Source of the DNA: Alphaproteobacteria bacterium
Lineage (GTDB): Bacteria; Pseudomonadota; Alphaproteobacteria; UBA828; JAPUJA01
NCBI GenBank assembly: GCA_963694715.1
Contig: CAVOEB010000001.1
Coordinates: 20,434-84,433, forward strand
Length of the DNA: 64,000 nucleotides
Reading direction: 5' to 3'
The translations under genes were made by a program, and so were the position numbers. Positions 7,729 to 49,751 of the stretch are shown here, one piece after another. Position 1 is the first letter of the stretch. The number at the start of each line of letters is the position of its first letter. The notes below the pieces were generated by a model that was not told the DNA's origin, did no database searches, and was given only the letters and a program-made list of their open reading frames with translations.

Positions 7729-9548
7729 GCATCCGCCGCCTGTCCGAAACGATGGTCAACCGCATTGCCGCGGGCGAGGTCGTCGAGCGGCCGGCGTCGG
7801 TGGTCAAGGAGCTGGTCGAAAACGCCGTCGATGCCGGGGCGACACGCGTCGACGTCGTGATCGAAGGCGGCGGGCGCGGCCTTATCTCCGTTAGCGACAA
7901 CGGCAGCGGCATCGCGTCCGATGAACTGGCGCTCAGCATCGAGCGCCACGCCACCTCGAAGCTGGGCGACGATGACCTCGACGCGATCGTCACGTTGGGC
8001 TTTCGCGGCGAGGCCTTGCCCTCGATCGCGTCAGTCAGCCGGTTTTGCCTGACCAGCCGCACTAGGGACGCGGAGAGCGCGTGGCAGATCGCAATCGAGG
8101 GCGGGCGTGTGGCCGAACCGGCGCCGGCGGCGCTCTCGGCGGGTACGCGGGTCGAGGTTCGCGACCTGTTTTACGCAACGCCGGCGCGTCTCAAGTTTCT
8201 CAAGCAGCCCCGCACCGAGGTCGGGCACGCGCTCGACGTGGTCAACCGGCTGGCGCTCGCCCGCCCCGACATTGCCTTTTCCGTGCAGGACGGTGGCCGC
8301 TCCGCCCTGCAATTGTCCGCCACCGCGGGCGACCTGCTCGACGCCCGGCTCGAACGCATCGCCCAGGTCATGGGCCGCGAGTTCGCCGAGAACGCCCTGC
8401 CCGTCGAGGCCGAGCGCAACGGCGTCCGTCTTTCCGGCTATGTCAGCCTGCCCACACTCAATCGGGCGACGGGGCAATATCAACATCTTGTCGTCAACGG
8501 CCGTCCCGTGCGCGATCGCATGCTGGTGGGTGCGTTGCGCGGCGCTTACCAGGATGTGCTGGTGTCGGGCCGCTTTCCGCTAGTGGTGCTATTTCTCGAC
8601 CTGCCGGCGGGTGAGCTCGACGTCAATGTCCATCCGGCTAAGACCGAGGTTCGCTTTCGCGACGCGGCAAACGTGCGCGGTCTATTGGTCGGAGGCATCC
8701 GCGCAGTGCTGACTGCGGCCGGACACCGCAGCGCGTCGAGTGTCGCGCAAGCGGCGCTCGGCGCCTTCCAACCCGAAGCGCCGGGTCCGGTGCAGTCGTC
8801 ACTGCAAGCCCGCGCTCCCGTGTCCGGCGGCGGCTACGTGGGGTACGCCCCAGGCTTTGGCCCCGGGCTTGCCGAGGCGGCGGCGTTCTACCAGGCGCCG
8901 CTGGGCGCGCCCGCGGCCCGTGCCGACGCTCCGTCCGAGGACGCGGATCCTGATGCGCCGGACGGCGGCTATCCTCTGGGCGCCGCGCGGGGCCAGTTGC
9001 ACGAAACCTATGTCGTGGCCCAGACCGCGGACGGGCTGGTCATCGTCGATCAGCACGCCGCTCACGAGCGGCTCACCCACGAGCGCATCCGGGGTGCGCT
9101 GGAGGCCGAGGGGGTGGCTCGCCAGGTCCTGCTCGTGCCCGAGGTGGTCGAGCTTGAAGCGAATGCCGTCGACCGGCTTCTCGAACGCCGGGCCGAGTTG
9201 GCCGAGTTGGGTCTCGTGATTGAAGCCTTCGGCCCGGGCGCGGTGGTGGTGCGCGAGACGCCTGCATTGCTGGGTGAGACCGACGCGATTGGGCTGGTGC
9301 GCGATCTGGCGGACGATCTCGCCGAGCTGGGCGAGGCTGTAAGCCTGAAGGATCGGCTCTCGGAGGTTTGCGCCACCATGGCCTGTCACGGCAGCGTCCG
9401 GGCGGGCCGCCGTCTTTCCCTCGACGAGATGAACGCCCTGCTGCGTCAGATGGAGACGACACCCCGTTCCGGCCAATGCAGCCACGGCCGGCCGACCTAT
9501 GTCGAACTCAAGCTCGCCGACATCGAAAAGCTGTTCGGGCGGCGCTAG
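7725..9548 (+). CDS. mutL: DNA mismatch repair protein MutL
   Basis: The N-terminal GHKL ATPase motifs are present (RIAAGEVVERPASVVKELVENAVDAGA, SVSDNGSGI). The C-terminal dimerisation region is typical. A GTG start overlaps the pgi stop. Confidence 0.9.
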   Translation: MSIRRLSETMVNRIAAGEVVERPASVVKELVENAVDAGATRVDVVIEGGGRGLISVSDNGSGIASDELALSIERHATSKLGDDDLDAIVTLGFRGEALPSIASVSRFCLTSRTRDAESAWQIAIEGGRVAEPAPAALSAGTRVEVRDLFYATPARLKFLKQPRTEVGHALDVVNRLALARPDIAFSVQDGGRSALQLSATAGDLLDARLERIAQVMGREFAENALPVEAERNGVRLSGYVSLPTLNRATGQYQHLVVNGRPVRDRMLVGALRGAYQDVLVSGRFPLVVLFLDLPAGELDVNVHPAKTEVRFRDAANVRGLLVGGIRAVLTAAGHRSASSVAQAALGAFQPEAPGPVQSSLQARAPVSGGGYVGYAPGFGPGLAEAAAFYQAPLGAPAARADAPSEDADPDAPDGGYPLGAARGQLHETYVVAQTADGLVIVDQHAAHERLTHERIRGALEAEGVARQVLLVPEVVELEANAVDRLLERRAELAELGLVIEAFGPGAVVVRETPALLGETDAIGLVRDLADDLAELGEAVSLKDRLSEVCATMACHGSVRAGRRLSLDEMNALLRQMETTPRSGQCSHGRPTYVELKLADIEKLFGRR

Positions 9549-9586
9549 CGCAAAATAGGGCGATATCTAATCGCCCCAATTTTGCG
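9549..9586. terminator. Imperfect 38-nt hairpin between convergent mutL and rsmD; possible bidirectional terminator
   Basis: The hairpin is cgcaaaat-agggcgat-atcta-atcgcccc-a-attttgcg. The outer 8-bp arms are perfectly complementary and the stem is A/T-flanked. There is no clean U-tract. Confidence 0.35.
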
Positions 9587-9683
9587 AGCCCGCAAGCATT
9601 GGCCGCCGCAGGGCAGGGGCTGGCGTGGGGCGCGGCCGGCCCCAACAAAAATGAGGCGAGAGCCTGCGCGGCGCTTGAGTGCG

Positions 9684-10250
9684 TCAAATTCCAACAAAGC
9701 GCAGAAAGCTGAACCGCGCGGTGCCGTAACGCCGTGCCTCCAGGATCTCGAAGCCTTCGGGCGGTGGGGCCTCGCCGCTCTCTTTAGCCGCCATTTCCAC
9801 GACCACGAGCGCACCGCTTGCAAGCCAACCACCTTGGGCCAACGCGGCCAGCGCGGGTTCTGCCAGGCCGCTCCCGTAGGGCGCGTCGAGAAACGCGATA
9901 TCGGCGGTACCGGTTGGGGGCGGCGGCCGGGTCGCGTCGGCCTGGATCAGGATCACCCGTTCTTCTTCGCCCAGCGCTTCGGCATTGGCCGCCAGGCAGC
10001 GGGCGGCCGCCCGATCGTTGTCCAGTGCGACGAGCCGCGCCGCGCCGCGCGAGAGGGCCTCGAGGCCGAGCGCGCCGGTGCCGGCGAAAACGTCGAGCAC
10101 CGTGGCGCCGGCCAGCGCGGGGCCGCCCAAGCGGCCGTGCTCGAGAATATTGAACAACGCCTCGCGGGCACGGGTCGCCGTGGGGCGGAGCCGCCGGCCC
10201 GCCGGCGCCTTGAGCGCGCGGCCGCGATGCTTACCGCCGACGATGCGCAT
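9684..10250 (-). CDS. rsmD: 16S rRNA (guanine966-N2)-methyltransferase
   Basis: 188 aa with a SAM-binding motif VLDVFAGTGALGLEALSRGA and an RsmD-like N-terminus MRIVGGKHRGRAL. Confidence 0.8.
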   Translation of the reverse strand: MRIVGGKHRGRALKAPAGRRLRPTATRAREALFNILEHGRLGGPALAGATVLDVFAGTGALGLEALSRGAARLVALDNDRAAARCLAANAEALGEEERVILIQADATRPPPPTGTADIAFLDAPYGSGLAEPALAALAQGGWLASGALVVVEMAAKESGEAPPPEGFEILEARRYGTARFSFLRFVGI

Positions 10251-10986
10251 CGGGTTTGGGCGGTGCCTCGGCGGCGACCTGCTCGGCCACCACCTTAGCG
10301 GGCACTTCGCGTAATTCCCCGGTTTCTAGCTTGCCCAGCTGGAACGGGCCGTAGGCGATCCGGATCAGCCGGTTGACCTGCCAGCCCAGATGCTCGAGCA
10401 CCCGGCGCACTTCACGGTTCTTGCCCTCGGCAAGCGCGATGGTCAGCCAGGCGTTATCGCCCCGCTGGCTATCGAGGGCAGCGCGGATCGGGCCGTAGCG
10501 CATGCCGTCCACGATTATGCCCTCGCCGAGCGTGGCGAGCTGGCGCGCCTCGGGGTGGCCGTGCACGCGTGCCCGGTAGCGCCGGATCCAGCCCGTCGCG
10601 GGCAATTCGAGCTTTCGCGCGAGGCCGCCGTCGTTGGTCAGCAGCAGCAGGCCCTCACTCCTAAGATCGAGCCGGCCGACCGATATCACCCGGCCGATCT
10701 CGCGGGGCAGGACCTCGAACACGGTCGGGCGGCCTTGCGGGTCGCGGTGGCTGGTGACCAGACCGAGCGGCTTGTGGTAGCGCCACAGGCGGGTCTTGCC
10801 CGCCTCGGGCAGGGGCGCGCCGTCGACGCTGACGCGCATGTCCGGAGTCACGTTGAGCGCCGGAGAGCTGATCGGTACGCCGTCGACGGCCACCCGTCCC
10901 GCGACGATCATCCGCTCGGCGTCGCGCCGCGAGCCCAGCCCGGCGCGCGCGATGCGTTTGGCGATGCGCTCGCCCACACCCGTCAT
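10231..10986 (-). CDS. Pseudouridine synthase of the RluB/RsuA family (S4 domain + catalytic domain)
   Basis: The S4 domain (GLGSRRDAERMIVAGRVAVDG) and the catalytic motif RLDLRSEGLLLLTNDG are present. The start is trimmed to the ATG at 10986. The upstream part of the 459-aa track ORF is Arg-rich and overlaps the upstream gene in another frame. Confidence 0.75.
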   Translation of the reverse strand: MTGVGERIAKRIARAGLGSRRDAERMIVAGRVAVDGVPISSPALNVTPDMRVSVDGAPLPEAGKTRLWRYHKPLGLVTSHRDPQGRPTVFEVLPREIGRVISVGRLDLRSEGLLLLTNDGGLARKLELPATGWIRRYRARVHGHPEARQLATLGEGIIVDGMRYGPIRAALDSQRGDNAWLTIALAEGKNREVRRVLEHLGWQVNRLIRIAYGPFQLGKLETGELREVPAKVVAEQVAAEAPPKPDAHRRR

Positions 10987-12266: not shown

Positions 12267-13535
12267 CTAGCGCGCCAGCGCACGCCAGCCGATATCGCGG
12301 CGGCAAAAACCCCCCGGCCAGTCGACCGCATTGATGCCTTCATAGGCTCGCGTTTGCGCCTCGGCGATGCCTGCTCCCAGCGCGGTCACGCCCAGAACCC
12401 GCCCACCGATCGCCAGGATACGCCCGTTCTCGCGCGCGGTGCCGGCGTGAAACACGGTGACGCCCTCAAGCCCGTCCGCCGCATCGAGGCCGCGGATCTC
12501 GCTGCCCTTTTTGTAAGTTCCCGGATAGCCTTGTGCCGCCAGCACGACGCAGAGCGCCGTCTCGTCGCGCCAGCGCAAGGAAATGTCGCCGAGCCCCCCC
12601 TCGCGCGCTGCCATCAGGGCGGGCAGCAGGTCGGAGCTGAGGCGGGGGATCAAGACCTGGCATTCGGGGTCGCCGAAACGGACGTTGATCTCGAGCAGCT
12701 TGGGCCCGCTTTCCGTCACCATCAGCCCGGCATAGAGCACACCCACATAGGGCGCGCCAGCCGCCGCCATGGCGGCGATCAGGGGGCGGATGATCTCGTC
12801 CATCGCGATCTCGCACAGCGCGGGCGTAAGCAGAGGCGCGGGCGAATAAGCGCCCATGCCGCCGGTGTTGGGGCCGATATCGCCTTCGCCCACCCGCTTG
12901 TGGTCCTGGGCGGTAGCCAGCGGGAGCGCGGTCGTACCGTCGACCAGGGCGAAGAAGCTCGCCTCCTCGCCGACCAGGCAGTCCTCGATCACGAGCTCGG
13001 CGCCGGCGTCCCCGAACTGGCCGTCCAGCATGGCTTCGGCGGCCGCCACCGCCTCGGCCACGCTCTCGGCCACTACCACGCCCTTGCCTGCCGCGAGGCC
13101 ATCGGCCTTGACTACGATGGGTGCGCCCTGGGCCTCGATATAGGCGCGCGCCGGCCCGATCTCGCGAAACCGTGCGTAGGCCGCGGTAGGCACGCCTGCG
13201 GTCTTACAGATCTCCTTCATGAAGGCCTTCGAGCCCTCGAGTTGCGCCGCTTTCGCGCTCGGCCCGAAGGCGGCGATCCCGGCGGCTTCCAGGCGGTCGA
13301 CCAGGCCGGCGACCAGCGGCGCCTCGGGCCCAACGACCACGAAGTCGACCGCCTCGTCCTTGCAATAACGCTCGATGCCTGCGAGATCGAGAGGATCGAG
13401 CGGCACGCAGGCGGCCACTTGCGCGATGCCGCCGTTGCCCGGTGCGCAGACCAGCGTCTCGACCAGTGGCGAGGCCTTGAGCGCCCAGCACAGCGCGTGC
13501 TCCCGTCCGCCCGACCCGATTACCAGAACTTTCAC
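12267..13535 (-). CDS. purD: Phosphoribosylamine--glycine ligase
   Basis: The N-terminus [15 protein letters not shown] is typical of PurD, with ATP-grasp motifs downstream. The start is a GTG at 13535 preceded by GAGGGAGAG. Confidence 0.9.
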
Positions 13536-13590: not shown

Positions 13591-15123
13591 ATGAGCGAGA
13601 TGCCCCCAATCCCCGAGCCCGCCGGAAACGCCCCGGTCTACACCGTCAGTGAGCTGTCCGGCGCGCTCAAGCGAACAATCGAGGATCGCTTCGGCCGGGT
13701 CCGGGTGCGCGCCGAGGTTTCGGGCTTTAAGCGTGCCGCCTCGGGCCATCTCTACTTCACGCTCAAGGACAAAGACGCGATCCTGGCCTCGGTCTGCTGG
13801 CGGGGCATGGCGGCCAAGCTGACAGTCCAGCCCGAGGACGGTCTGGAGATCATCTGCTCCGGGCGGCTGACCACCTATCCCGGCCGCTCCCAATACCAGC
13901 TGATCGTGGATTCCGTCGAACTCGCCGGCGAGGGCGCGCTGCTTAAGCTGCTCGAAAATCGGCGCAAGGCGCTCGCCGCCGAAGGCCTGTTCGACGAAGC
14001 AAGAAAACAACCGCTGCCCTATCTCCCCGAGGTCATTGGCGTAGTCACCTCGCCCACCGGGGCGGTCATCCGCGACATCCTCCACCGCATCGCCGAGCGT
14101 TTCCCCCGCCACGTCCTGGTCTGGCCCGTGGTGGTGCAGGGCGAGCGCGCGGCGGGCGAAATCGCGGCGGCGATCGAGGGATTCAACCGCCTCGATCCCG
14201 CCGGCCCCGTGCCTCGGCCCGGGCTGCTGATCGTTGCGCGCGGCGGCGGCAGCCTCGAGGATCTGTGGGCGTTCAACGAGGAGGCGGTGGTTCGTGCCGC
14301 GGCGGCCAGCGCGATCCCTCTGATCTCGGCAGTCGGGCACGAGACCGACACTACCCTGATCGATTTTGCTGCCGACAGGCGCGCGCCGACCCCTACGGCG
14401 GCGGCCGAGATGGCGGTGCCCGTGCGCGTCAAACTGCTCGAGACCGTACGCACCCTCGACGTTCGCCTGCTCGGCACGATCAACCGCCGGCTCGGGGCCG
14501 AGCGCTCCGAGCTTCGCGGCCTCGCGCGCGGTCTGCCCGATCCGGCTTCGCTGCTCGATGTCGTAGCCCAGCGGCTTGACGACCGATTTGAGCGGCTGGT
14601 CAACGCGGCGGCTAACGAACTGGAGCGGCGCACCGGCCGGCTGGAATCGCTTTCGCGTGGCTTACGCCATCCGCGCGAACGGCTCAAGGAGCGCGAGGCC
14701 CGCATCAAAGCCGCCGGCCGGGCGCTCCGCGTGGGCATGCGGGCGCGCCTGGCTGCGGAACGCGACCGCTTGGGACGGCGTTCCGACCAGCTCGACGGGG
14801 TTAGCCTCCGCCTGGGGCGCGCCATGACCTCCGCCCTGGAGGCCCGCAACCAGGACCTCGCGGCGCGGGCCCGCCTCCTCGACGGCTTTTCCTATCAAAA
14901 GGTGCTCGAACGCGGCTTCGTGCTGGTTCGCGACGATGCTGGCGCGGCCCTCATCTTGGTCGCCGCTACCGCGCCGAATATGGCGGTCAGCCTGCGATTT
15001 TCAGACGGCGAAGCGGGTGCGAGGATCACTGATGGCCCACCCCCGCCCGCCGCCCGTCCGGCCAAGCCTGCGCGCAAGAAAGAACCCGCTGGTCCCGATC
15101 CCAGCCAGGGCGAGCTTCTGTGA
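13591..15123 (+). CDS. xseA: Exodeoxyribonuclease VII large subunit
   Basis: It has an OB-fold N-terminus (VYTVSELSGALKRTIEDRFGRVRVRAEVSGF) and a long coiled-coil C-terminus. The ATG at 13591 is divergent from purD. Confidence 0.85.
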   Translation: MSEMPPIPEPAGNAPVYTVSELSGALKRTIEDRFGRVRVRAEVSGFKRAASGHLYFTLKDKDAILASVCWRGMAAKLTVQPEDGLEIICSGRLTTYPGRSQYQLIVDSVELAGEGALLKLLENRRKALAAEGLFDEARKQPLPYLPEVIGVVTSPTGAVIRDILHRIAERFPRHVLVWPVVVQGERAAGEIAAAIEGFNRLDPAGPVPRPGLLIVARGGGSLEDLWAFNEEAVVRAAAASAIPLISAVGHETDTTLIDFAADRRAPTPTAAAEMAVPVRVKLLETVRTLDVRLLGTINRRLGAERSELRGLARGLPDPASLLDVVAQRLDDRFERLVNAAANELERRTGRLESLSRGLRHPRERLKEREARIKAAGRALRVGMRARLAAERDRLGRRSDQLDGVSLRLGRAMTSALEARNQDLAARARLLDGFSYQKVLERGFVLVRDDAGAALILVAATAPNMAVSLRFSDGEAGARITDGPPPPAARPAKPARKKEPAGPDPSQGELL

Positions 15124-19981: not shown

Positions 19982-21723
19982 GGGGCGCCGCCTGCGAACT
20001 GCAGCGCGTAGAGCCTGGCATAGGCCCCGTTATTCGCCAACAGCTCGGCATGGGTGCCTGATTCGACGATCTGTCCCTGCTCGATGGTATAGATCCGGTC
20101 GGCGTCGATCACGGTGGATAGGCGATGGGCGATGACCAGGGTTGTTCTCTCGCGCATCAATTCGGCCAGCGCCTGTTGGACCTTGCGTTCGGATTCGCTG
20201 TCGAGTTCCGAGGTTGCCTCGTCGAGCAGCAGGATCGGCGCGTTCTTCAGCATCGCCCGGGCGATGGACAGGCGTTGACGCTGCCCGCCTGAAAGCTTCA
20301 CACCGCTTTCGCCGATCATGGTGTCGTAGCCGTCGGGCAATTGGGTAATGAAGTCGTGCGCCGCCGCACCCTGGGCGGCGGCTTCGATGTCGGCGTCGCT
20401 GGCGCCCGCGCGACCGTAAGCGATGTTGGCGCGCACGCTGTCGTCGAACAGCACGCTTTCCTGGCTGACCAGGGCCAGGGCGTCGCGCAGGCTTTCGAGC
20501 GTCACGTCGCGCACGTCCTGGCCGTCGATCCGGATGGAGCCCGCGCTGACATCGTAAAAGCGCGGGATCAGGTTGAGGATGGTCGATTTTCCCGCACCCG
20601 ACGGGCCGACCAGGGCGACCATCTTCCCCGCCGGGATAGCCAGCGACACGCTGGACAGCGCGGGCGCGTTCTCGTGATAGGCGAAGCTCACGCCCTCCAG
20701 TGCGACCGCCCCGCCTGAGATGACCAACGCCTTGGTTCCGGGGCCGTCCTTGATCGTCGGCTCCATGTCGAGCACATGAAACAGCCGCTGGCTTGCGGCC
20801 AGCCCCTCCTGAAGATTGGTGTTCAGGTTGGCGAGGCTCTTCATCGGCTTGTAGGCGAGCAACAGGGCGGTCACAAAGGAGAAGAAGGCGCCGGGCGTCA
20901 GGCTGCCGTCGATCACCTGCCAGCCGCCATAGAAGATGATCGCGGCAACCGCGATGCCGCCCAGGGTTTCCATGATCGGCGACGAGAGCGCGCGTACCCG
21001 GTACGACTTGTAGACGATACGGAACATGTTCTCGATGACGCTGGCCGTGCGCTCGGTCTCAAAACCTTCCCGGTTGTAGGCCTTGACGTGGCGCACCCCC
21101 TGGAAGGCCTCGTTGAGCCGGGCGGTGAAGCGGCCCGCCTCGCCCAGTACGTCGGTTGAGATTTTGCGCATCCGCCGCCCGATGCGTACGATCGGATAGA
21201 TCGCGGCAGGAAACACCACGAACGCGATCAGCGCCAGCTTCCAGTCCTTCTCGAACATCACGGCGAGGAGGAACGTCAGGGTCAGCGCATCCTTGATCAG
21301 GCCCGTCAGGATCTGCGAGACGGCGTTACGCATGGCGTTGATATCGTTCGTGAAGCGCGAGATCAGGCGTCCCGAGCCGGCGTTGTGAAAGAAGGCGAGG
21401 TCGAAACGGATCAGGTGGGCAAACAGTCTGGTCTGCAGATCGGCGATAATGCGCTGGCCGACATAGCCCATCAGCACGCCTTCGAAGTAGGCGGCCAAGC
21501 CCTTGATCAGGGCAATCGCTAATACGGTCACGGTGATCAGGACCAGGATGCTCTGGTCCTTGTCGATGAACACCCGATCGAGCACCGGCTCCATCAACTG
21601 GGCAAGCCCTGCGGTGGCGCCCGCCGCGATCGTCATGCACAGCATGGCGAGGCCGAGCCGGCCGAAGTAGGGGCGCACATGATTACGCACGAGGCGCGAG
21701 AGCAGCGCGCGCGTCGATGCCAT
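19972..21723 (-). CDS. msbA: ABC transporter permease/ATPase, MsbA-like lipid A exporter
   Basis: Six TM helices are followed by an NBD with Walker A (GPSGAGKST), the ABC signature (LSGGQRQR) and Walker B (ILLLDEATS). The start is trimmed to the ATG at 21723. Confidence 0.8.
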   Translation of the reverse strand: MASTRALLSRLVRNHVRPYFGRLGLAMLCMTIAAGATAGLAQLMEPVLDRVFIDKDQSILVLITVTVLAIALIKGLAAYFEGVLMGYVGQRIIADLQTRLFAHLIRFDLAFFHNAGSGRLISRFTNDINAMRNAVSQILTGLIKDALTLTFLLAVMFEKDWKLALIAFVVFPAAIYPIVRIGRRMRKISTDVLGEAGRFTARLNEAFQGVRHVKAYNREGFETERTASVIENMFRIVYKSYRVRALSSPIMETLGGIAVAAIIFYGGWQVIDGSLTPGAFFSFVTALLLAYKPMKSLANLNTNLQEGLAASQRLFHVLDMEPTIKDGPGTKALVISGGAVALEGVSFAYHENAPALSSVSLAIPAGKMVALVGPSGAGKSTILNLIPRFYDVSAGSIRIDGQDVRDVTLESLRDALALVSQESVLFDDSVRANIAYGRAGASDADIEAAAQGAAAHDFITQLPDGYDTMIGESGVKLSGGQRQRLSIARAMLKNAPILLLDEATSELDSESERKVQQALAELMRERTTLVIAHRLSTVIDADRIYTIEQGQIVESGTHAELLANNGAYARLYALQFAGGAPCS

Positions 21724-44849: not shown

Positions 44850-45023
44850 TCGCGCTCAGTCGCCGCGCAGGCTGGCGCCACATAAGCAGCCCCCCCGAGT
44901 AACTATGACTGGCCGCATCCGCGGCCGGCGTGGGCTTGCGAAATCTACGAATCTTTCGCTAGCACAGCGACATCGTCTCGCGTTTCTGGGGTCGGGGAAA
45001 AACCAGATGTCGGCGAGTGCGGG

Positions 45024-45599
45024 TCAGGCGGTGCCGGACTCGGTCGAGAGCTTGGACAGGTCGACGCCGATTTTGTTGATCGCCTGGTGCCATTTCGAGC
45101 CGACGTCCTCGCCGAATACCAGATCTTCGTCGGCCGGAACCATGAGCCAGCCGTTGGCCTGAATCTCGGCGTCGAGCTGGCCGGGTGCCCAGCCGGCATA
45201 GCCAAGCGCCAGCAGGCTGCGGTTAGGCCCTTCGCCGCTTGCCATGGCCTTGAGCACGTCGACGGTTGCGGTGAGCGCGATGTTGTCGTCAACCATCATG
45301 GTCGCGTCGTGAACATAGTCGGTGGAATGGAGCACGAAGCCGCGCGCGGCTTCGACGGGACCGCCGAAATGGACCCTAATCTGGTCGTCGCGGTTCGGCG
45401 AGTCGAGGCCGAGTTGTTCAAGCAGATCGGGGAAGGTCAAAGAATCGAGGAGTTTATTGACGACCAGTCCCATCGCGCCGTCTTCGGTGTGAGCACAGAG
45501 ATAGACCACCGAGCGGGTAAACCGCTCGTCGATCATGGTCGGCATGGCCACCAGCATGTGGCCATCCAGATAGGGCGAAAGGGCTGTTTCTGTCTTCAC
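45024..45599 (-). CDS. YqgE/AlgH family protein (UPF0301)
   Basis: 191 aa; N-terminus LxGHMLVAMPTMIDERFTRSVVYLCAH... matches the family. Confidence 0.8.
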   Translation of the reverse strand: MKTETALSPYLDGHMLVAMPTMIDERFTRSVVYLCAHTEDGAMGLVVNKLLDSLTFPDLLEQLGLDSPNRDDQIRVHFGGPVEAARGFVLHSTDYVHDATMMVDDNIALTATVDVLKAMASGEGPNRSLLALGYAGWAPGQLDAEIQANGWLMVPADEDLVFGEDVGSKWHQAINKIGVDLSKLSTESGTA

Positions 45600-45878
45600 G
45601 TCACGTTTCCTTCACGAACAATCATACTCCTTGGCACCAGAACAGGATCAACAATTTTTCTTAACATCCGCTGACTTAATAAATTAAGGCGCAATATAGC
45701 GGTTGGGGAAACGTCGAAAAACAGTCACTATTTTAGCTGGTAAATTTTTTTCTTTGGAGGCAGCCGCATTGCGGCGTCAGCGCTGTGCGAGAGCCGGACC
45801 CGCGCTATATTGTAAGCATATAGCGGCGGCGTGCGCTGTCGATCCGGATAAACAAGACGATGAGAGAGGGAGAACGAG

Positions 45879-46364
45879 ATGACCATCAAGGTGGGGGATC
45901 GGCTGCCGTCGGCAAGCTTCGAGGTGATCGGCGAAGGTGGCGAGGGAGCGGTATCGACCGATACGCTGTGCCCGGGCAAGAAGGTTGTGCTGTTCGGCGT
46001 GCCGGGCGCGTTTACGCCGACCTGCTCGGCCGAGCATGTACCGAGCTTCAAGGCGAACGCGGCGGCGCTGCGCGCCAAGGGCGTGGACGCGGTGGGCTGC
46101 GTCTCGGTCAACGATGCCTTCGTCATGAAGGCCTGGGCCGACGAGCGCCAGACCGGCGAGGACGTCATGATGCTGGCCGACGGCAACGGCAGTTTTAGCG
46201 AAGCGACGGGGACAGCGCTCGATTGCTCGACCTGGGGCATGGGCCAGCGTTGTACCCGCTACGCCATGGTGGTCGATGACGGCGTCGTCACCCATATCGC
46301 CGTCGAGGACGATCCCGGGGTCATGACGGTGACCAGCGCCGAAGCGATTCTCGACGCGCTCTAG
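45879..46364 (+). CDS. Peroxiredoxin, Prx5-like (type 2 Prx) subfamily
   Basis: The motif VPGAFTPTCS carries the peroxidatic Cys. 161 aa, with SD GAGAGGGAG upstream. Confidence 0.85.
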   Translation: MTIKVGDRLPSASFEVIGEGGEGAVSTDTLCPGKKVVLFGVPGAFTPTCSAEHVPSFKANAAALRAKGVDAVGCVSVNDAFVMKAWADERQTGEDVMMLADGNGSFSEATGTALDCSTWGMGQRCTRYAMVVDDGVVTHIAVEDDPGVMTVTSAEAILDAL

Positions 46365-46517
46365 GGGCGTCGGTGAACTTGCGGGCCGGGCGCGGCGTCG
46401 GGGCCGCGGGGTTGTGCAGCGTTTTGGAGGATCCAAATGTTATCCACCATAAGGGCTGACCCCGGGGATAACTTGAGCTAGGGTCGGAGCATCTCCGCGA
46501 GACGTGCGAAGGACCAC

Positions 46518-46553
46518 GCCCGCCGGAGAAAACGCTGCTGCGGGCATTTTTTG
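46518..46553 (+). terminator. Putative Rho-independent terminator (GCCCGC stem, 16-nt loop, then T-tract)
   Basis: Sequence gcccgc-cggagaaaacgctgct-gcgggc followed by ATTTTTTG. It lies downstream of the peroxiredoxin gene and upstream of the small-ORF array. Confidence 0.35.
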
Positions 46554-46651
46554 TTCAAAATTCAGGGTTTGTCGAGTATCGCACCCCGCCGGCTGGGGTG
46601 CGTGGCGCATTTATTCTGCCATCAACGTATCTCCCAATAGGGAGAGAAATT

Positions 46652-47023
46652 ATGACATTCACGATCGACCCGCCGGGCGGCGGAAGCCGGCGCCCAAGAT
46701 CTGTGCCGCGCAACCCGGCGGGCGAACGGCTGCAGAAGCTGGAGAACGCGACCTTCGTGACAGGCGAGTTGGAGCGGTTTTCCCAGATGCTGAACGACGA
46801 ATTTGGGAAACAGGTGAACGACGGCAAGACGCGGGGTGCGGCGTTCTCCGAGGATGTGAAGCATCTAAGCTTGGGGCTGATCGACGACATGCTGGCCGGG
46901 ATCGAGACCCTGCCCAACGGGCGGCCCCGGATCGACGAAGTGGGGCGAGGCCGGTTCCGCGAGCGCGCCTGCGAGATGCTTAACCTCAAGCTCGACGAGG
47001 GCAAGAAGCTTCAGGCGCGGTAG
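46652..47023 (+). CDS. Hypothetical small protein P1 (123 aa), first member of a tandem paralogous array
   Basis: An excellent SD AGGGAGAG sits 7 nt upstream of the ATG. P1 shares the motifs ENATF.TGELERF...DEFG and LAGIETLP with P2 and P3. No family was recognised. Confidence 0.5.
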   Translation: MTFTIDPPGGGSRRPRSVPRNPAGERLQKLENATFVTGELERFSQMLNDEFGKQVNDGKTRGAAFSEDVKHLSLGLIDDMLAGIETLPNGRPRIDEVGRGRFRERACEMLNLKLDEGKKLQAR

Positions 47024-47076
47024 CGGAGCGCGACGCGCTTGGCACGCTGTCCGCCGTGGGTAAGGAGCTATCGGAA

Positions 47077-47334
47077 GTGGCAGGGCACAGGCCTGCCGAC
47101 TTCACCGTCATCCGCGAGAGCCTGGGGCGCGCGGTGGACGAGTTCACGGGCGTGTTCGGGCCTGCGCGCGAAGCGTCGACCCGGCGCAAGCTGGACGACA
47201 ATCTGTTCGTTAGAAAATTCAGGGGGTTGGCAGCGAGCGATCTCGACGGGGCCCTCGCGGAGCCGAACGATCCCGCCAACCTGCCGGAACACGGCGAGGA
47301 GGAGCGCGAAAAATTACGCGGGCAGCTGCGCTAG
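47077..47334 (+). CDS. Hypothetical small protein P2 (about 85 aa), paralogue of P1/P3
   Basis: A GTG start sits 9 nt after AAGGAG. Its motif ADFTVIRESLGRAVDEFTGV parallels ENFTAYRERIAGLPERGFAEV in P3 and ENATFVTGELERF..DEFG in P1. Confidence 0.4.
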   Translation: MAGHRPADFTVIRESLGRAVDEFTGVFGPAREASTRRKLDDNLFVRKFRGLAASDLDGALAEPNDPANLPEHGEEEREKLRGQLR

Positions 47335-47340
47335 ACGGCG

Positions 47341-48099
47341 GTGATTTCGCAGGAAGACCCGGCGTTCGCCGAGATGGACTGGCAGGAAGAGGAGATGGGG
47401 GTTCAAACGACCGAGGCGGCGCGGATCGGCGCGGCGTTGCTGGCGCTAAATGGCCGGATCACGCGGATCGAGGCGCTGCTGGCGAAAGATGAACGGCCGG
47501 AGCCGGAAGACGCGGGCGACCGCCGTGCGATGAGCGAGAATTTTACCGCCTACCGGGAGCGTATCGCGGGGTTGCCCGAGCGCGGGTTCGCGGAAGTAGG
47601 CTATGCGGGCCGGGTGGGGATGATCCCTGCACCGCTGGCCGACGAGATCGAGGGCGGACTGCCGGCGAAAGAACCGGCGATGCAGGTGGCGGCTGCGAAG
47701 CGCTTTACGCTTGTGGGCGATCAACTGCCCGCGCCCTGCCCCGAGGAAGTGTTCACGTTCGTGCCTTGCGCGAGAGCCACCGCCTTATTGGAAGCAACTC
47801 TCCACCCTCAGTATCGCATCCACCTATCTATGGGTCTCGGCAGCCGTCTGGTTCGTCGAGATCGCACCTGCGGCTTGGGGCAGATTCGAACACAACGCGT
47901 CGGCGGATTATTGCAACTATTCGGTGTCGGCGGAGAGCGCCAACTATCAGAGCGGGGATATGCCCTGCCTTATTACGCCGTGGTTCTATATCCAGCCCGG
48001 GTTGCTGCTGGTCATTTTGATCGGAGCGACTCAGGCGCCGGCCTATCTAAATTTTCTTGCGCGACACGTCCAACGTCGTCGATGTATGCTCCGATTTGA
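47341..48099 (+). CDS. Hypothetical protein P3; the N-terminal about 130 aa is paralogous to P1/P2 and the 3' half runs through a lower-GC insert (possible fusion or disrupted gene)
   Basis: The paralogue motifs ENFTAYRERIAGLPERGFAEVGYAGRVGMIPAPLADEIEGGLPAKEP are present. After about 47730 the composition changes and all three plus-strand frames stay open, so the true stop is uncertain. Confidence 0.3.
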   Translation: MISQEDPAFAEMDWQEEEMGVQTTEAARIGAALLALNGRITRIEALLAKDERPEPEDAGDRRAMSENFTAYRERIAGLPERGFAEVGYAGRVGMIPAPLADEIEGGLPAKEPAMQVAAAKRFTLVGDQLPAPCPEEVFTFVPCARATALLEATLHPQYRIHLSMGLGSRLVRRDRTCGLGQIRTQRVGGLLQLFGVGGERQLSERGYALPYYAVVLYPARVAAGHFDRSDSGAGLSKFSCATRPTSSMYAPI

Positions 48100-48124
48100 G
48101 GCCACATAAACAGTCCACCTCGCC

Positions 48125-48345
48125 CCGACAGGAATGATCCTCGCACCGCTGGCTCACGAGATCAAAGGCGGGTTTCTGGCGAAGGAGTCGGAGGAGCAGG
48201 TGGTAGCGGCGAAGCGGGACGGGGCGGGAGAGCTTTACCAGAGATAACGCTTCGTCGCTTGAGGCCGATCGCTTCGCCGCGGAAGTGAGTTACGCGGGCC
48301 GGATTGGAGGGACGCTGTGCCGGGCGAATCTCAGGCGGGGTCGAG
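48125..48345 (+). pseudogene. Frameshifted partial copies of the P3 repeat unit
   Basis: 48125-48246 encodes GMILAPLAHEIKGGFLAKESEEQVVAAKRDGAGELYQR*, about 80% nt identity to 47617-47710. 48259-48345 encodes ADRFAAEVSYAGRIGGTL..., homologous to 47585-47625, in a different frame. Neither piece has a start codon or SD. Confidence 0.35.
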
Positions 48346-48783
48346 CCCGGTGATCGCGTCGCGGGCAAGCTCGTCGGCGCGTTCGTTGCCGGCGTTGCCC
48401 GAATGGCCCCTGACCCAGTGAAACTCGACCTCGTGGCGGACGAGGGCCTCGTCGAGGCGCTGCCAGAGGTCGACGTTCTTGACCGGCTTTTTCGCAGCGG
48501 TTCGCCAGTTACGGCGCTTCCAGTCGTGAATCCAGGTGGTGATGCCGTCGCGCACATAGCGGCTATCGGTGTAGAGGTCGACGCGCGCGGGCCGGGTCAG
48601 GGTTTCGAGCGCGATGATCGCTGCCATCAATTCCATGCGGTTGTTGGTGGTGTCGGGCTCGGCGCCGGACAGCTCGCGGATCTGGCCTTGCGCGCTTAGC
48701 ACCACGCCCCAGCCGCCGGGGCCGGGATTGCCCCGGCAGGCGCCGTCGGTATGGATTTTGACCGCCGAGAGGGCCGCGGTCAT
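48331..48783 (-). CDS. rnhA: Ribonuclease HI
   Basis: 150 aa with catalytic motifs [17 protein letters not shown] (DEDD Asp10), MELMA (Glu48) and YTDS (Asp70). The ATG is trimmed from the Arg-rich N-terminal extension of the track ORF. Confidence 0.85.
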
Positions 48784-49751
48784 GCCGCCTCGTCGAGGCC
48801 GTAGGCGCCGGGCCCGGTGATGCCCCGATGGAAGCGCAGGATCTTGACGTAAACCATGGGATCGTGGGGCTTGACCATTGCGCCCTCGACCCGGTTGAGC
48901 CAGTCGTAGAGCCGGGTTAGCAGGAAGCGCACCGCAGCACCCCGGGCCAGCAGCGGCAGGGCGGCCAGCTCCTCGGCGCCCAGCGCGCGTTCCTTGCGGT
49001 AAGCGGAGAGCAGGGCGCGCGCCTTGGTGATATTGAAGCTGGCGTCGGTCTCGAAGCACCAGGCGTTGAGGCAGATAGCCAGGTCGTAGGCAAAGAAATC
49101 GTTACACGCGAAGTAGAAGTCGATCACGCCCGAGAGCTTATGGCTCTCGAAAAAGACGTTGTCCGGGAACATGTCGGCATGGATGACGCCCGCCGGCAAG
49201 GCATCGGGCCAGTCGCGCTCGATCTGGGACAGCTCGGTGCCAAGCTCCTCGGCAAGGCCCTCAGCGACCTCGTCGGCGCGAGGTGCGCAGGCGTCGAAGA
49301 GCGGGCGCCAGCCCGCGACCGAGAGGGCGTTCTCGCGGCGTCCGGGGAAATCCTGGCCCGCCTGGTGAAGACGTCCCAGGGCGCTGCCTAGCGCGCGGCA
49401 ATGCTCGGGCCCGATGCGCCGCGGCCAGGCGCCGGGCAGGAAGGTAGTGATCGCCGCCGAGCGATCGCACAGTTCGTGCAGGACCTTGCCGTCGCGGCCG
49501 TGAATAGGCATCGGGCAGGTCACGCCGCGCGCCGCCAGATGTTCGATCAACGACAGAAAAAAGGGCAGGTCGCTGCGTGCAACGCGCTTCTCGTAGAGGG
49601 TGAGAATATAGGGCGTTGTTTCGGTCAGCAGCAGGTAGTTTGTGTTCTCGACACCCTCGGCGATGCCTTTGAACGAGAGCACCCGGCCAATGTCGAACTG
49701 CTCCGCGAACGCGGCGATCTCGGTATCGGAAACTTCGGTGTAGACGGCCAT
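48780..49751 (-). CDS. thrB: Homoserine kinase (ThrB, aminoglycoside-phosphotransferase-fold type)
   Basis: 323 aa with the APH-like motifs [13 protein letters not shown] and D..D. Its stop overlaps the rnhA start (ATGA). thrB-rnhA synteny is conserved in alphaproteobacteria. Confidence 0.8.

Follow-up and report, generated by a model that had tools for sequence, protein, structure and literature searches.

A run of small open reading frames between prx and rnhA in a marine alphaproteobacterium: remnants of one gene, probably a phage-derived effector with an exchangeable C-terminal domain

When several small open reading frames (ORFs) follow one another on the same strand, do they represent an array of related genes or what is left of a single one? 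This question is raised by the sequence between the peroxiredoxin gene prx and rnhA in an alphaproteobacterial contig (CAVOEB010000001.1 of GenBank assembly GCA_963694715.1), of which we analysed 64,000 nucleotides (positions 20,434 to 84,433 of the forward strand; hereafter the window, whose own numbering is used below). A preliminary description of the window proposed that three ORFs located here, P1, P2 and P3, are paralogues produced by tandem duplication, with decayed copies further downstream. The three same-strand ORFs do exist (46652-47023, 47077-47334 and 47341-48099). However, comparison with their relatives shows them to be successive pieces of one ancestral ORF of about 800-900 aa, and we consider it quite probable that the locus is a decaying copy of a rare, fast-evolving, mosaic, phage-derived effector gene with a swappable C-terminal domain, which was inserted here in one lineage and broken.

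A scan of one genome per species returned a single relative, the locus L022 in a metagenome-assembled genome (MAG) labelled Alphaproteobacteria bacterium. This locus holds one uninterrupted ORF of 882 aa (8001-10649), the start of which matches all of P1: in a tblastn search of the window, residues 1-123 correspond to P1 with 62% identity. In the neighbouring frame, the same search aligns residues 82-429 with a continuous region that takes in the spacer between P1 and P2, P2 with the stop codon after it, and P3 up to position 47787 (52% identity, 4e-97). The three long homologues (P0002, P0003, which is the L022 ORF itself, and P0004) all read through both the P1/P2 and the P2/P3 junctions. 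Because P1, P2 and P3 are collinear with one uninterrupted ORF and are interrupted by identifiable lesions, they are fragments of one ancestral gene and not a tandem array. Aligned with L022 and with a second related locus, L023, the gene is divided as follows:

46652-47023, plus strand: ORF P1 (123 aa); fragment 1, corresponding to ancestral residues 1-123 and ending in TAG (62% identity to the L022 ORF, 76% to P0002)
47018-47026, plus strand: lesion 1, a CAG>TAG change plus a 1-nt deletion (frameshift), from the DNA alignment with L022 and L023
47023-47337, plus strand: fragment 2 (linker and P2), corresponding to ancestral residues 124-226 and ending in an in-frame TAG, from identity to L022 and L023
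47077-47334, plus strand: ORF P2 (85 aa)
47335-47337, plus strand: lesion 2, an in-frame TAG in place of the relatives' ATG (Met), from the alignment
47338-47787, plus strand: fragment 3 (the homologous part of P3), corresponding to ancestral residues 227-429, from tblastn
47341-48099, plus strand: ORF P3 (252 aa)

The boundaries between the three ORFs are two point lesions, not intergenic spacers. At the first, the window reads GCGCGGTA-GCGGAG where L022 and L023 read GCGCGTCAGGCGGAA and GTGCGCCAGGCAGAG, a single G having been lost at 47021-47023; at the second, CTGCGCTAGACGGCG stands opposite CTGCGCATGACGGCT and CTGCGCATGATGGCG in the relatives. Translated, fragment 2 (AERDALGTLSAVGKELSEVAGHRPADF...) shows 70% identity to both L022 and L023 across 102-103 codons. 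All three ORFs had been credited with good ribosome-binding sites, and this holds for P1, which has GGGAGA. The AAGGAG of P2 resembles a Shine-Dalgarno (SD) sequence, but both this motif and the GTG start codon at 47077 lie within ancestral coding sequence, AAGGAG corresponding to ancestral Gly-Lys-Glu codons, and the GTG of P3 has no clear SD. Two larger losses are evident further on. In the DNA alignment an in-frame deletion of 141 nt (47 codons) at about 47432-47465 has removed L022 residues 263-309, and past residue 429 (motif VPCARAT, 47787) the window continues with unrelated, lower-GC sequence, so that the C-terminal ~450 residues are missing. A "234-aa" gene annotated 60 nt after P2 was considered as a second allele and proved to be merely another start-codon call on identical DNA.

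Codon usage and substitution rates describe the history of this gene. The GC content of third codon positions (GC3) is 0.83-0.85 for P1, P2 and the first part of P3 (P1 0.85, P2 0.83), and 0.83-0.87 for prx, rnhA and thrB. Compared with L022, the three fragments show nonsynonymous divergence (dN) of 0.18-0.26 and synonymous divergence (dS) of 0.69-0.80, with dN/dS of 0.23-0.33 (0.23-0.29 for fragment 2 and 0.32 for fragment 3). For thrB, rnhA and prx, compared with the same MAG (locus L034), the corresponding values are 0.02-0.05, 0.35-0.49 and about 0.07-0.11 (0.14 at most), which puts the nonsynonymous rate of the gene at roughly five times that of the housekeeping genes. The gene is more diverged than the host genomes, and this fits a different origin and location. 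These ratios show a genuine coding sequence that was held under purifying selection through most of its history, and the disabling lesions must be recent relative to its divergence from L022.

The whole stretch is absent from the corresponding site in related genomes. Four relatives were chosen through homologues of the adjacent thrB gene, and gene order was then read on their contigs. All four share the order ATP synthase b/b', gcvPHT, CDGSH, thrB and rnhA, followed convergently by prx, DUF179, acetyltransferase, TusA, M16, thrC and M32. The stop codons of rnhA and prx are 213, 20, 27 and -4 nt apart in these relatives (thrB identity 95, 92, 91 and 78%, respectively) and 1,966 nt apart in the window (46365-48330). 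In blastn comparisons with L034, L035 and L037, homology ends at 46364-46368 and picks up again at 48331-48361, breaking right at the stop codons of the two genes. Since the site is empty between the same flanks in the four relatives, the entire array is a lineage-specific insertion of 1,966 nt between the convergent genes prx and rnhA, and the earlier impression of an accessory stretch is thereby borne out. The flanks and the left junction are as follows:

45879-46364, plus strand: prx, a Prx5-type Redoxin/AhpC-TSA peroxiredoxin gene (Pfam Redoxin, 6.6e-35); left flank, native and outside the element
46365-46435, no strand: junction sequence from the prx stop to the first homology with the element elsewhere (alignment with L022 and L023 is conserved only from about 46436), probably including a remnant of the native 20-27-nt prx/rnhA spacer
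48331-48783, minus strand: rnhA, an RNase H gene (Pfam RNase_H, 7.4e-51); right flank, native and outside the element

The position next to prx had been taken as meaningful. It is incidental, as the homologous gene sits in other contexts in relatives. For example, the intact gene at L022 lies downstream of DHDPS and proline-racemase genes, in a context shared with L023, and P0004 occupies a third chromosomal context. L022 is also about 180 kb from the empty thrB-rnhA-prx site of its own MAG (L034), both loci lying on a 558,293-nt contig and being taken as the same MAG.

Three further observations concern the insertion site and its surroundings. The closest relative (thrB 95%; a contig of JGI 3300072015) has the 213-nt gap between rnhA and prx, compared with 20-27 nt elsewhere, and this gap may represent a scar, or a short leftover, of the same insertion. 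Positions 46380-46395, at the left junction of the insertion, match 47604-47619, at the end of repeat unit B (TGCGGGCCGGG...), in 14 of 16 nt; the match adjoins a recurrent GRVG/MIP breakpoint and could reflect integration microhomology or chance in GC-rich DNA. Finally, positions 48954-49026 on the minus strand, inside the thrB coding sequence, match the Rfam family Lambda_thermo with 25.2 bits, where the gathering score is 50 (E = 0.013), most likely by chance. Beyond this chance-level match, an Rfam search (E <= 1) over 45000-49500 gave nothing, and the window contains no tRNA or tmRNA genes.

What, then, did the intact gene encode? The family is very small. When 1.84 billion representative proteins were searched exhaustively with HMMER, P1 matched six only, among them the long homologues P0002 (370 aa, 76%), P0003 (the L022 ORF) and P0004 (433 aa, 63%). 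Two N-terminal stubs, P0005 (79 aa) and P0007 (54 aa), break at different points. A word-indexed protein search with the A2 profile found three fragments only. Another word-indexed search, with residues 1-130 of P3, returned P0001 alone and missed both its own 252-aa product and the 882-aa homologue, which related collections contain; because known members escaped it, its recall is poor and its negatives for this family should be read with care. The N-terminal family had been described as unassignable to any known domain, and profile searches agree: residues 1-470 match no family in Pfam, NCBIfam, PHROG or PADLOC and show no evident signal peptide, and scans of P1, P2, P3 and the alternative-frame ORF described below gave nothing significant in the same four collections.

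Family copies agree as far as a VPCxRA[RT] motif and then switch to alternative sequences, with three endings seen among three to five sequences: PBECR1, GH108, and unrelated lower-GC sequence. The L022 ORF carries a C-terminal PBECR1 domain as its single Pfam domain (33.9 bits, cut-off 27.6), and its GC content falls from 0.70-0.75 upstream to 0.50-0.55 in the PBECR1 region. The gene at L023, which is the contig of P0002, ends in a GH108 muramidase domain (50-60 bits, cut-off 21.2) accompanied by a sub-threshold PG_binding_3 match (15-20 bits, cut-off 24.6); it has a frameshift at about residue 280, which may be an assembly error, the contig being from a 7x long-read assembly. In the window copy, a Pfam scan finds no effector domain, whether PBECR, lysozyme or other. 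The neighbours of the L022 gene are housekeeping or insertion sequence (IS) genes, none of them phage or type IV secretion system genes.

Truncated copies accompany the intact genes. L023 has two 5'-truncated copies, at 12822-13346 and 14865-15086. One of them, of 473 aa, begins with RDGRIARIEALLA and ends in a GH108 domain of its own; the other begins with LPAPCLEGVFT. Isolated fragments of the 300-470 region occur in two more genomes, as P0009 (between IS copies, in L028) and P0010. The latter shares a 1.54-Mb contig (JGI 3300072015) with P0004, which is followed by ORFs of 313, 123 and 32 aa. Taken together, these arrangements lead us to infer that the intact family would be a swappable-warhead effector, with C-terminal cassettes exchanged by recombination within the 300-470 region. 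Also seen at L023 (10001-15349) is a 149-aa ORF with a signal peptide on the opposite strand between the gene copies, and each L023 copy has one RTX-like GGxGxD nonapeptide (e.g., GAGGNDSS and GEGGNDTLVGG).

The downstream part of the insertion in the window can be described in the same terms:

47711-48109, plus strand: alternative-frame ORF of 132 aa with two hydrophobic segments, from GC3, gene callers and hydropathy
47788-48130, plus strand: variable lower-GC segment in place of the C-terminal ~450 aa (linker plus enzymatic domain), without homology to L022 or L023
48131-48247, plus strand: orphan fragment A, which copies residues 372-401 (GMILAPLAHEIKGGFLAKESEEQVVAAKR), is truncated at its 5' end and closes with a unique 9-aa tail and TAA, from identity
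48253-48330, plus strand: orphan fragment B, a copy of residues ~357-372 (ADRFAAEVSYAGRIGG) and then unrelated sequence up to the rnhA stop, from identity

The lower GC content noted earlier is real, at 0.545-0.58 across about 47800-48200 compared with 0.65-0.70 on either side, and here the plus-strand frames are indeed largely open and the minus strand closed. Its proposed role as an insertion that splits a gene array does not hold. The segment begins exactly after VPCxRA[RT], as in L022, and therefore the low-GC stretch is read as the site of the exchangeable C-terminal cassette. The P3 frame loses its codon signature after about 47730, where its GC3 is 0.53; that of the alternative frame (ORF 47711-48109) is 0.65. 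For contigs that began within the region (L020, L021 and L033), gene callers selected this second frame, and it looks like the real reading frame. Its two hydrophobic segments have Kyte-Doolittle 19-residue means of 1.35 and 1.66, and its sole start codon is a TTG without an SD. This ORF may encode a small membrane protein of the immunity type or, alternatively, may be what was once a membrane-active C-terminal cassette and has since gone out of frame. It is one of two downstream candidates for an immunity gene, the other being the 149-aa signal-peptide ORF of L023, and neither has a family match.

The two orphan fragments are genuine repeats. As originally described, two copies of the P3 unit are present downstream, in swapped order and in different frames, although their identity is lower than the reported 80%: 77% over 86 nt for fragment A (48131-48216 against 47617-47702) and 72% over 43 nt for fragment B (48265-48307 against 47576-47618). 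Nor do both lack start sites, as fragment A has an ATG at 48134 and is annotated by gene callers as a 37-aa ORF. At the protein level P3 and fragment A align with a score of 86, where shuffles average 25 (z = 14), and fragment A is 63% identical to L022 residues 372-401 (tblastn). The start of fragment A, GMI(L/P)APLA (GMIP...), is the exact start point of the orphan in L028, and the last 81 nt (21 codons) of the alternative-frame ORF together with fragment A are 79% identical, without gaps over 170 nt, to L028 9914-10083. Most simply, fragments A and B would be the stumps of successive 5'-truncated orphan cassettes, with fragment B probably representing a further cassette that was cut at the right end of the insertion.

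The orphan in L028 (1-20432), P0009 (143 aa), lies amid dense DDE_Tnp_1_4 IS copies that are >99% mutually identical, and at 9913/9914 the conserved tail of the small membrane ORF directly adjoins the end of one of these IS copies. An IS remnant was considered as the source of the lower-GC segment, whose last 81 nt match L028 beside a transposase, and was ruled out, because this IS ends one base before the match begins.

Upstream, about 215 nt move with the gene. This region is conserved in L022, L023 and L024 despite their differing contexts (the leader counterparts are L022 7790-8000 and L023 9790-10000) and contains the following elements:

46436-46651, plus strand: conserved 5' region (~215 nt)
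46456-46461, plus strand: promoter-like -35 element, TTGACA in the relatives
46479-46484, plus strand: promoter-like -10 element (TAGGGT) after a 17-nt spacer, from conservation
within 46436-46651, plus strand: stem-loop 1, from folding
46518-46545, plus strand: terminator-like GC-rich hairpin followed by a T-run that reaches about 46553, some 100 nt upstream of the start codon
46581-46602, plus strand: stem-loop 3, with compensatory changes, from folding
46630-46646, plus strand: hairpin over the SD, from folding

For three sequences, RNAalifold predicts 47 pairs, seven of which have compensatory changes. The leader matches no Rfam family, and a consensus scanner did not flag the promoter-like and terminator-like plus-strand sites, so these calls come from conservation and folding. 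It is a reasonable inference that the gene is under attenuator-type control, and the leader could be an attenuator, a riboswitch-like element or a small RNA. A candidate DnaA box (TTATCCACC, at 46440) was set aside because it is not conserved as such in the relatives.

Two local similarities connect the N-terminal part with phages. Residues 9-144 of the L022 ORF match P0006 (702 aa) with 34% identity (7e-11); this protein has a PHROG "head protein" family match and is encoded in an element that also carries genes for an integrase and a Toprim primase. The second similarity, that of residues 297-444, is to a 597-aa ORF (31% identity over 151 aa, 1e-9) whose immediate downstream neighbour encodes a T7-gp16-like "internal virion protein with endolysin domain" (PHROG 342, 5e-126). 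A tblastn search with the N-terminal 480 aa found no match among 50,697 phage records, a scan of viral contigs matched none, and a Protein Data Bank sequence search with the 882-aa protein returned no relative of solved structure. AlphaFold, given P1 and four homologues, predicts a three-helix unit with confidence (predicted local distance difference test score 81.8, predicted template modelling score 0.70). Its top three Foldseek matches are uncharacterised caudoviral proteins of 551-700 aa, which agree weakly with a phage ancestry and no more.

From these data the history of the locus may be reconstructed. In relatives, the intact gene comes with its own conserved promoter-like region and structured leader, followed by an N-terminal module of ~470 aa without a known domain, two stretches of which are akin to large virion proteins of podovirus-like phages, and, after VPCxRA[RT], a variable lower-GC linker and a C-terminal enzyme domain, either a PBECR1 RNase-type nuclease or a GH108/PG_binding_3 muramidase. 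Downstream of it are 5'-truncated orphan copies of the conserved 300-470 region. In the window copy, a nonsense-plus-frameshift lesion and then an in-frame nonsense codon have cut the ORF into P1, P2 and P3, and 47 internal codons and the whole effector end have been lost. After the lost end there remain a short segment that possibly encodes a small two-helix membrane protein and then the two orphan stubs. The locus is probably non-functional as an effector; any remaining products would be no more than the 123-aa P1 peptide and that of the membrane ORF.

Several points weigh against a decayed, phage-derived effector with exchangeable ends. Both similarities to phages are local, at ~140 aa apiece, and the phage proteins concerned differ, and the Foldseek search of the P1 model against the viral structures of BFVD gave nothing significant (best E = 0.059). 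Statements about the family derive from very few sequences, and several homologues come from low-coverage long-read assemblies in which frameshifts are possibly errors. The two full GH108 cassettes of L023 are alike, not different warheads. By comparison with polymorphic toxins, no trafficking domain was found (TPS, PAAR/VgrG, LXG, MuF or signal peptide), there is a candidate immunity protein only, and the L023 orphans carry the same domain type. In addition, P1, P2 and the first part of P3 keep their codon signature intact, and conservation extends to the promoter-like region, the leader and the P1 SD, so that P1 may still be expressed and might conceivably have a function.

These last points are also the starting point of the strongest alternative, namely that the gene has been functionally split, with P1 keeping or gaining a role, possibly alongside P2, P3 and the membrane ORF, in a live mini-operon, for example as a regulator, an antitoxin-like fragment or a retained immunity function directed at relatives in which the effector is still produced. 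The conserved and intact upstream signals, the confident three-helix model of P1, the host-like GC3, the fixation of the sequence in many samples, and the conservation in L028 of the membrane ORF end and cassette junction are all in line with this possibility. However, a recent pseudogene would show host-like codons equally well. P3 has no credible ribosome-binding site, the start of P2 falls inside ancestral coding sequence, the membrane ORF would have to begin at a TTG without an SD, and base changes accumulate in the region. The stubs P0005 and P0007, moreover, break elsewhere and define no conserved short form. A functional split thus seems unlikely to us.

The population data just mentioned come from independent marine metagenome assemblies (MEGAHIT, JGI and Logan). 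More than 20 contigs, including contigs of 107 kb and 731 kb, are 99.8-100% identical to the window across the lesions and junctions, and since these contigs are independent, the lesions are real and not sequencing errors. The sequence is fixed in the population. Six of about nine single-base differences among these contigs, over tens of kilobases compared, fall within 47348-48146 (47348, 47494, 47600, 47717, 47890 and 48146), and many contigs end between 47760 and 48217. This pattern suggests that the locus is relaxed or variable. Two contigs depart from the common sequence altogether. L001 is 100% identical for 1,531 nt and diverges after 47485, just past the RIEALLA codons, and L019 is identical from rnhA to 48177 and diverges to the left of this position, inside GGxLAK; both RIEALLA and GGxLAK are family-conserved motifs. 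These are probably alternative haplotypes or, less probably, chimeras, and L019 suggests a second cassette arrangement in the population. In L001, positions 1532-1661 are unrelated sequence that yields an 81-aa product with a Cys-rich tail (RKCEHTW...CSRCETLD). In L019, 690 nt of unrelated sequence (888-1577) are joined in frame within GGxLAK, and their far end is the C-terminus of a different small hydrophobic protein. A tblastx comparison of the two variant tails with all fetched loci gave only noise.

The tandem array of paralogous small genes, with decayed copies and an insertion between them, is by contrast highly improbable. Decay is present, as are truncated extra copies of one segment, and the shared strand, the short acidic or Leu-Pro-containing strings and the genuine P3 duplicates downstream give the idea its appeal. 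Yet the motifs said to unite P1, P2 and P3 carry no signal. Pairwise local alignments of the three (Smith-Waterman, 500 shuffles) score 23-28 against shuffle means of about 28 (z = -0.97, -0.10 and -0.19), no better than shuffled sequence, and the three map instead to successive, non-overlapping parts of one ORF in three relatives, the gaps being single lesions within conserved coding sequence.

Programmed recoding, in which TAG read-through and a frameshift at 47021 would yield a P1-P2-P3 fusion, is extremely improbable. Both interruptions involve TAG, and P2 and P3 are parted by a single in-frame TAG. However, prx ends in an ordinary TAG stop both here and in relatives, there is no suppressor or other tRNA gene in the window, the P1/P2 junction (GCGCGGTAGCGG) has no slippery heptamer, and the product would still lack 47 internal residues and the whole effector end. 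An assembly or sequencing artefact or a chimeric join, to which the contigs that end or diverge in the region and the low-coverage long-read assemblies of some relatives might point, can be practically discounted given the near-identity of so many contigs from different samples, assemblers and sources.

A decayed effector gene is thus the reading we retain. As a feature of the window it amounts to gene decay of an ordinary kind, in a family that is itself uncharacterised. More than 20 public assemblies annotate P1, P2, P3 and the 37-aa stub as separate hypothetical proteins, where a single pseudogene should stand, and the case illustrates that same-strand ORFs with plausible ribosome-binding sites can mimic a gene array. 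The family appears to be a very rare, fast-evolving group of effectors with phage-like ancestry, alternative nuclease or muramidase ends and orphan cassettes, which moves between chromosomal sites, without a visible mobility gene, in a marine alphaproteobacterial clade that is uncultured. More tentatively, marine Kiloniellaceae-like Alphaproteobacteria may have in it a class of stand-alone chromosomal effectors not described before, with an N-terminus derived from podovirus ejection or head proteins, exchangeable warheads, orphan cassettes and a conserved attenuator-like leader, a proposal that we regard as possible but doubtful. Under such a scheme the warheads would be nucleases, muramidases or membrane-active domains, cassette exchange would be ongoing in populations, and the window copy would be a decayed allele, perhaps keeping its immunity gene. 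If this is a true conflict system, toxin scaffolds derived from phage structural proteins would extend beyond MuF, and the locus would offer a natural population in which to follow gain, decay and cassette replacement.

Four known systems invite comparison. The internal virion proteins gp15 and gp16 of T7-like podoviruses resemble the family in that the 597-aa ORF occupies the gp15 position and in the presence of a peptidoglycan hydrolase end, although the similarity of the family is local (31% over 151 aa). The polyvalent proteins of phages and conjugative elements have multiple (2-15) effector domains, PBECR and lysozyme among them, often with metallopeptidase (MPTase) or large polyvalent-protein-associated (LPD) domains, and are thought to be packaged and injected (Iyer et al. 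2017, PMC5512222). The PBECR1 and GH108 ends of the relatives, the virion-like N-terminal parts, the mosaicism and the rapid evolution all recall these proteins. In contrast, the L022 protein has a single effector domain and no zincin-like MPTase or LPD domain, the window copy has no effector domain at all, and the gene is found singly in the chromosome, away from any phage or conjugation genes, and has its own leader and orphan copies.

MuF toxins of temperate phages combine a phage-derived N-terminal part with variable toxic C-termini (Jamet et al. 2017, PMC5576092), and PBECR is a MuF-C type domain (PMC5512222). The family shares with them the fusion of an N-terminal part derived from a virion protein to variable C-terminal toxic domains, but the L022 ORF has no Phage_Mu_F Pfam match and the gene is not inside a prophage.

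The organisation of the locus is also like that of polymorphic toxins, in its conserved N-terminal part with a sharp switch after VPCxRA[RT] to lower-GC ends, its alternative enzymatic ends, its 5'-truncated downstream copies, the small hydrophobic ORF where an immunity gene would be expected and its frequent decay. Polymorphic toxin loci such as Rhs, CdiA and MafB (Zhang et al. 2012 and Poole et al. 2011, as cited in PMC5576092) combine a conserved head with alternative ends beyond a sharp switch point, and have orphan copies and small downstream ORFs. Immunity genes are often kept in such loci after the toxin is lost. The family differs from them in being tiny and limited to one clade of marine Alphaproteobacteria. 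The family is therefore described as working like polyvalent proteins and polymorphic toxins, and is filed as a member of neither.

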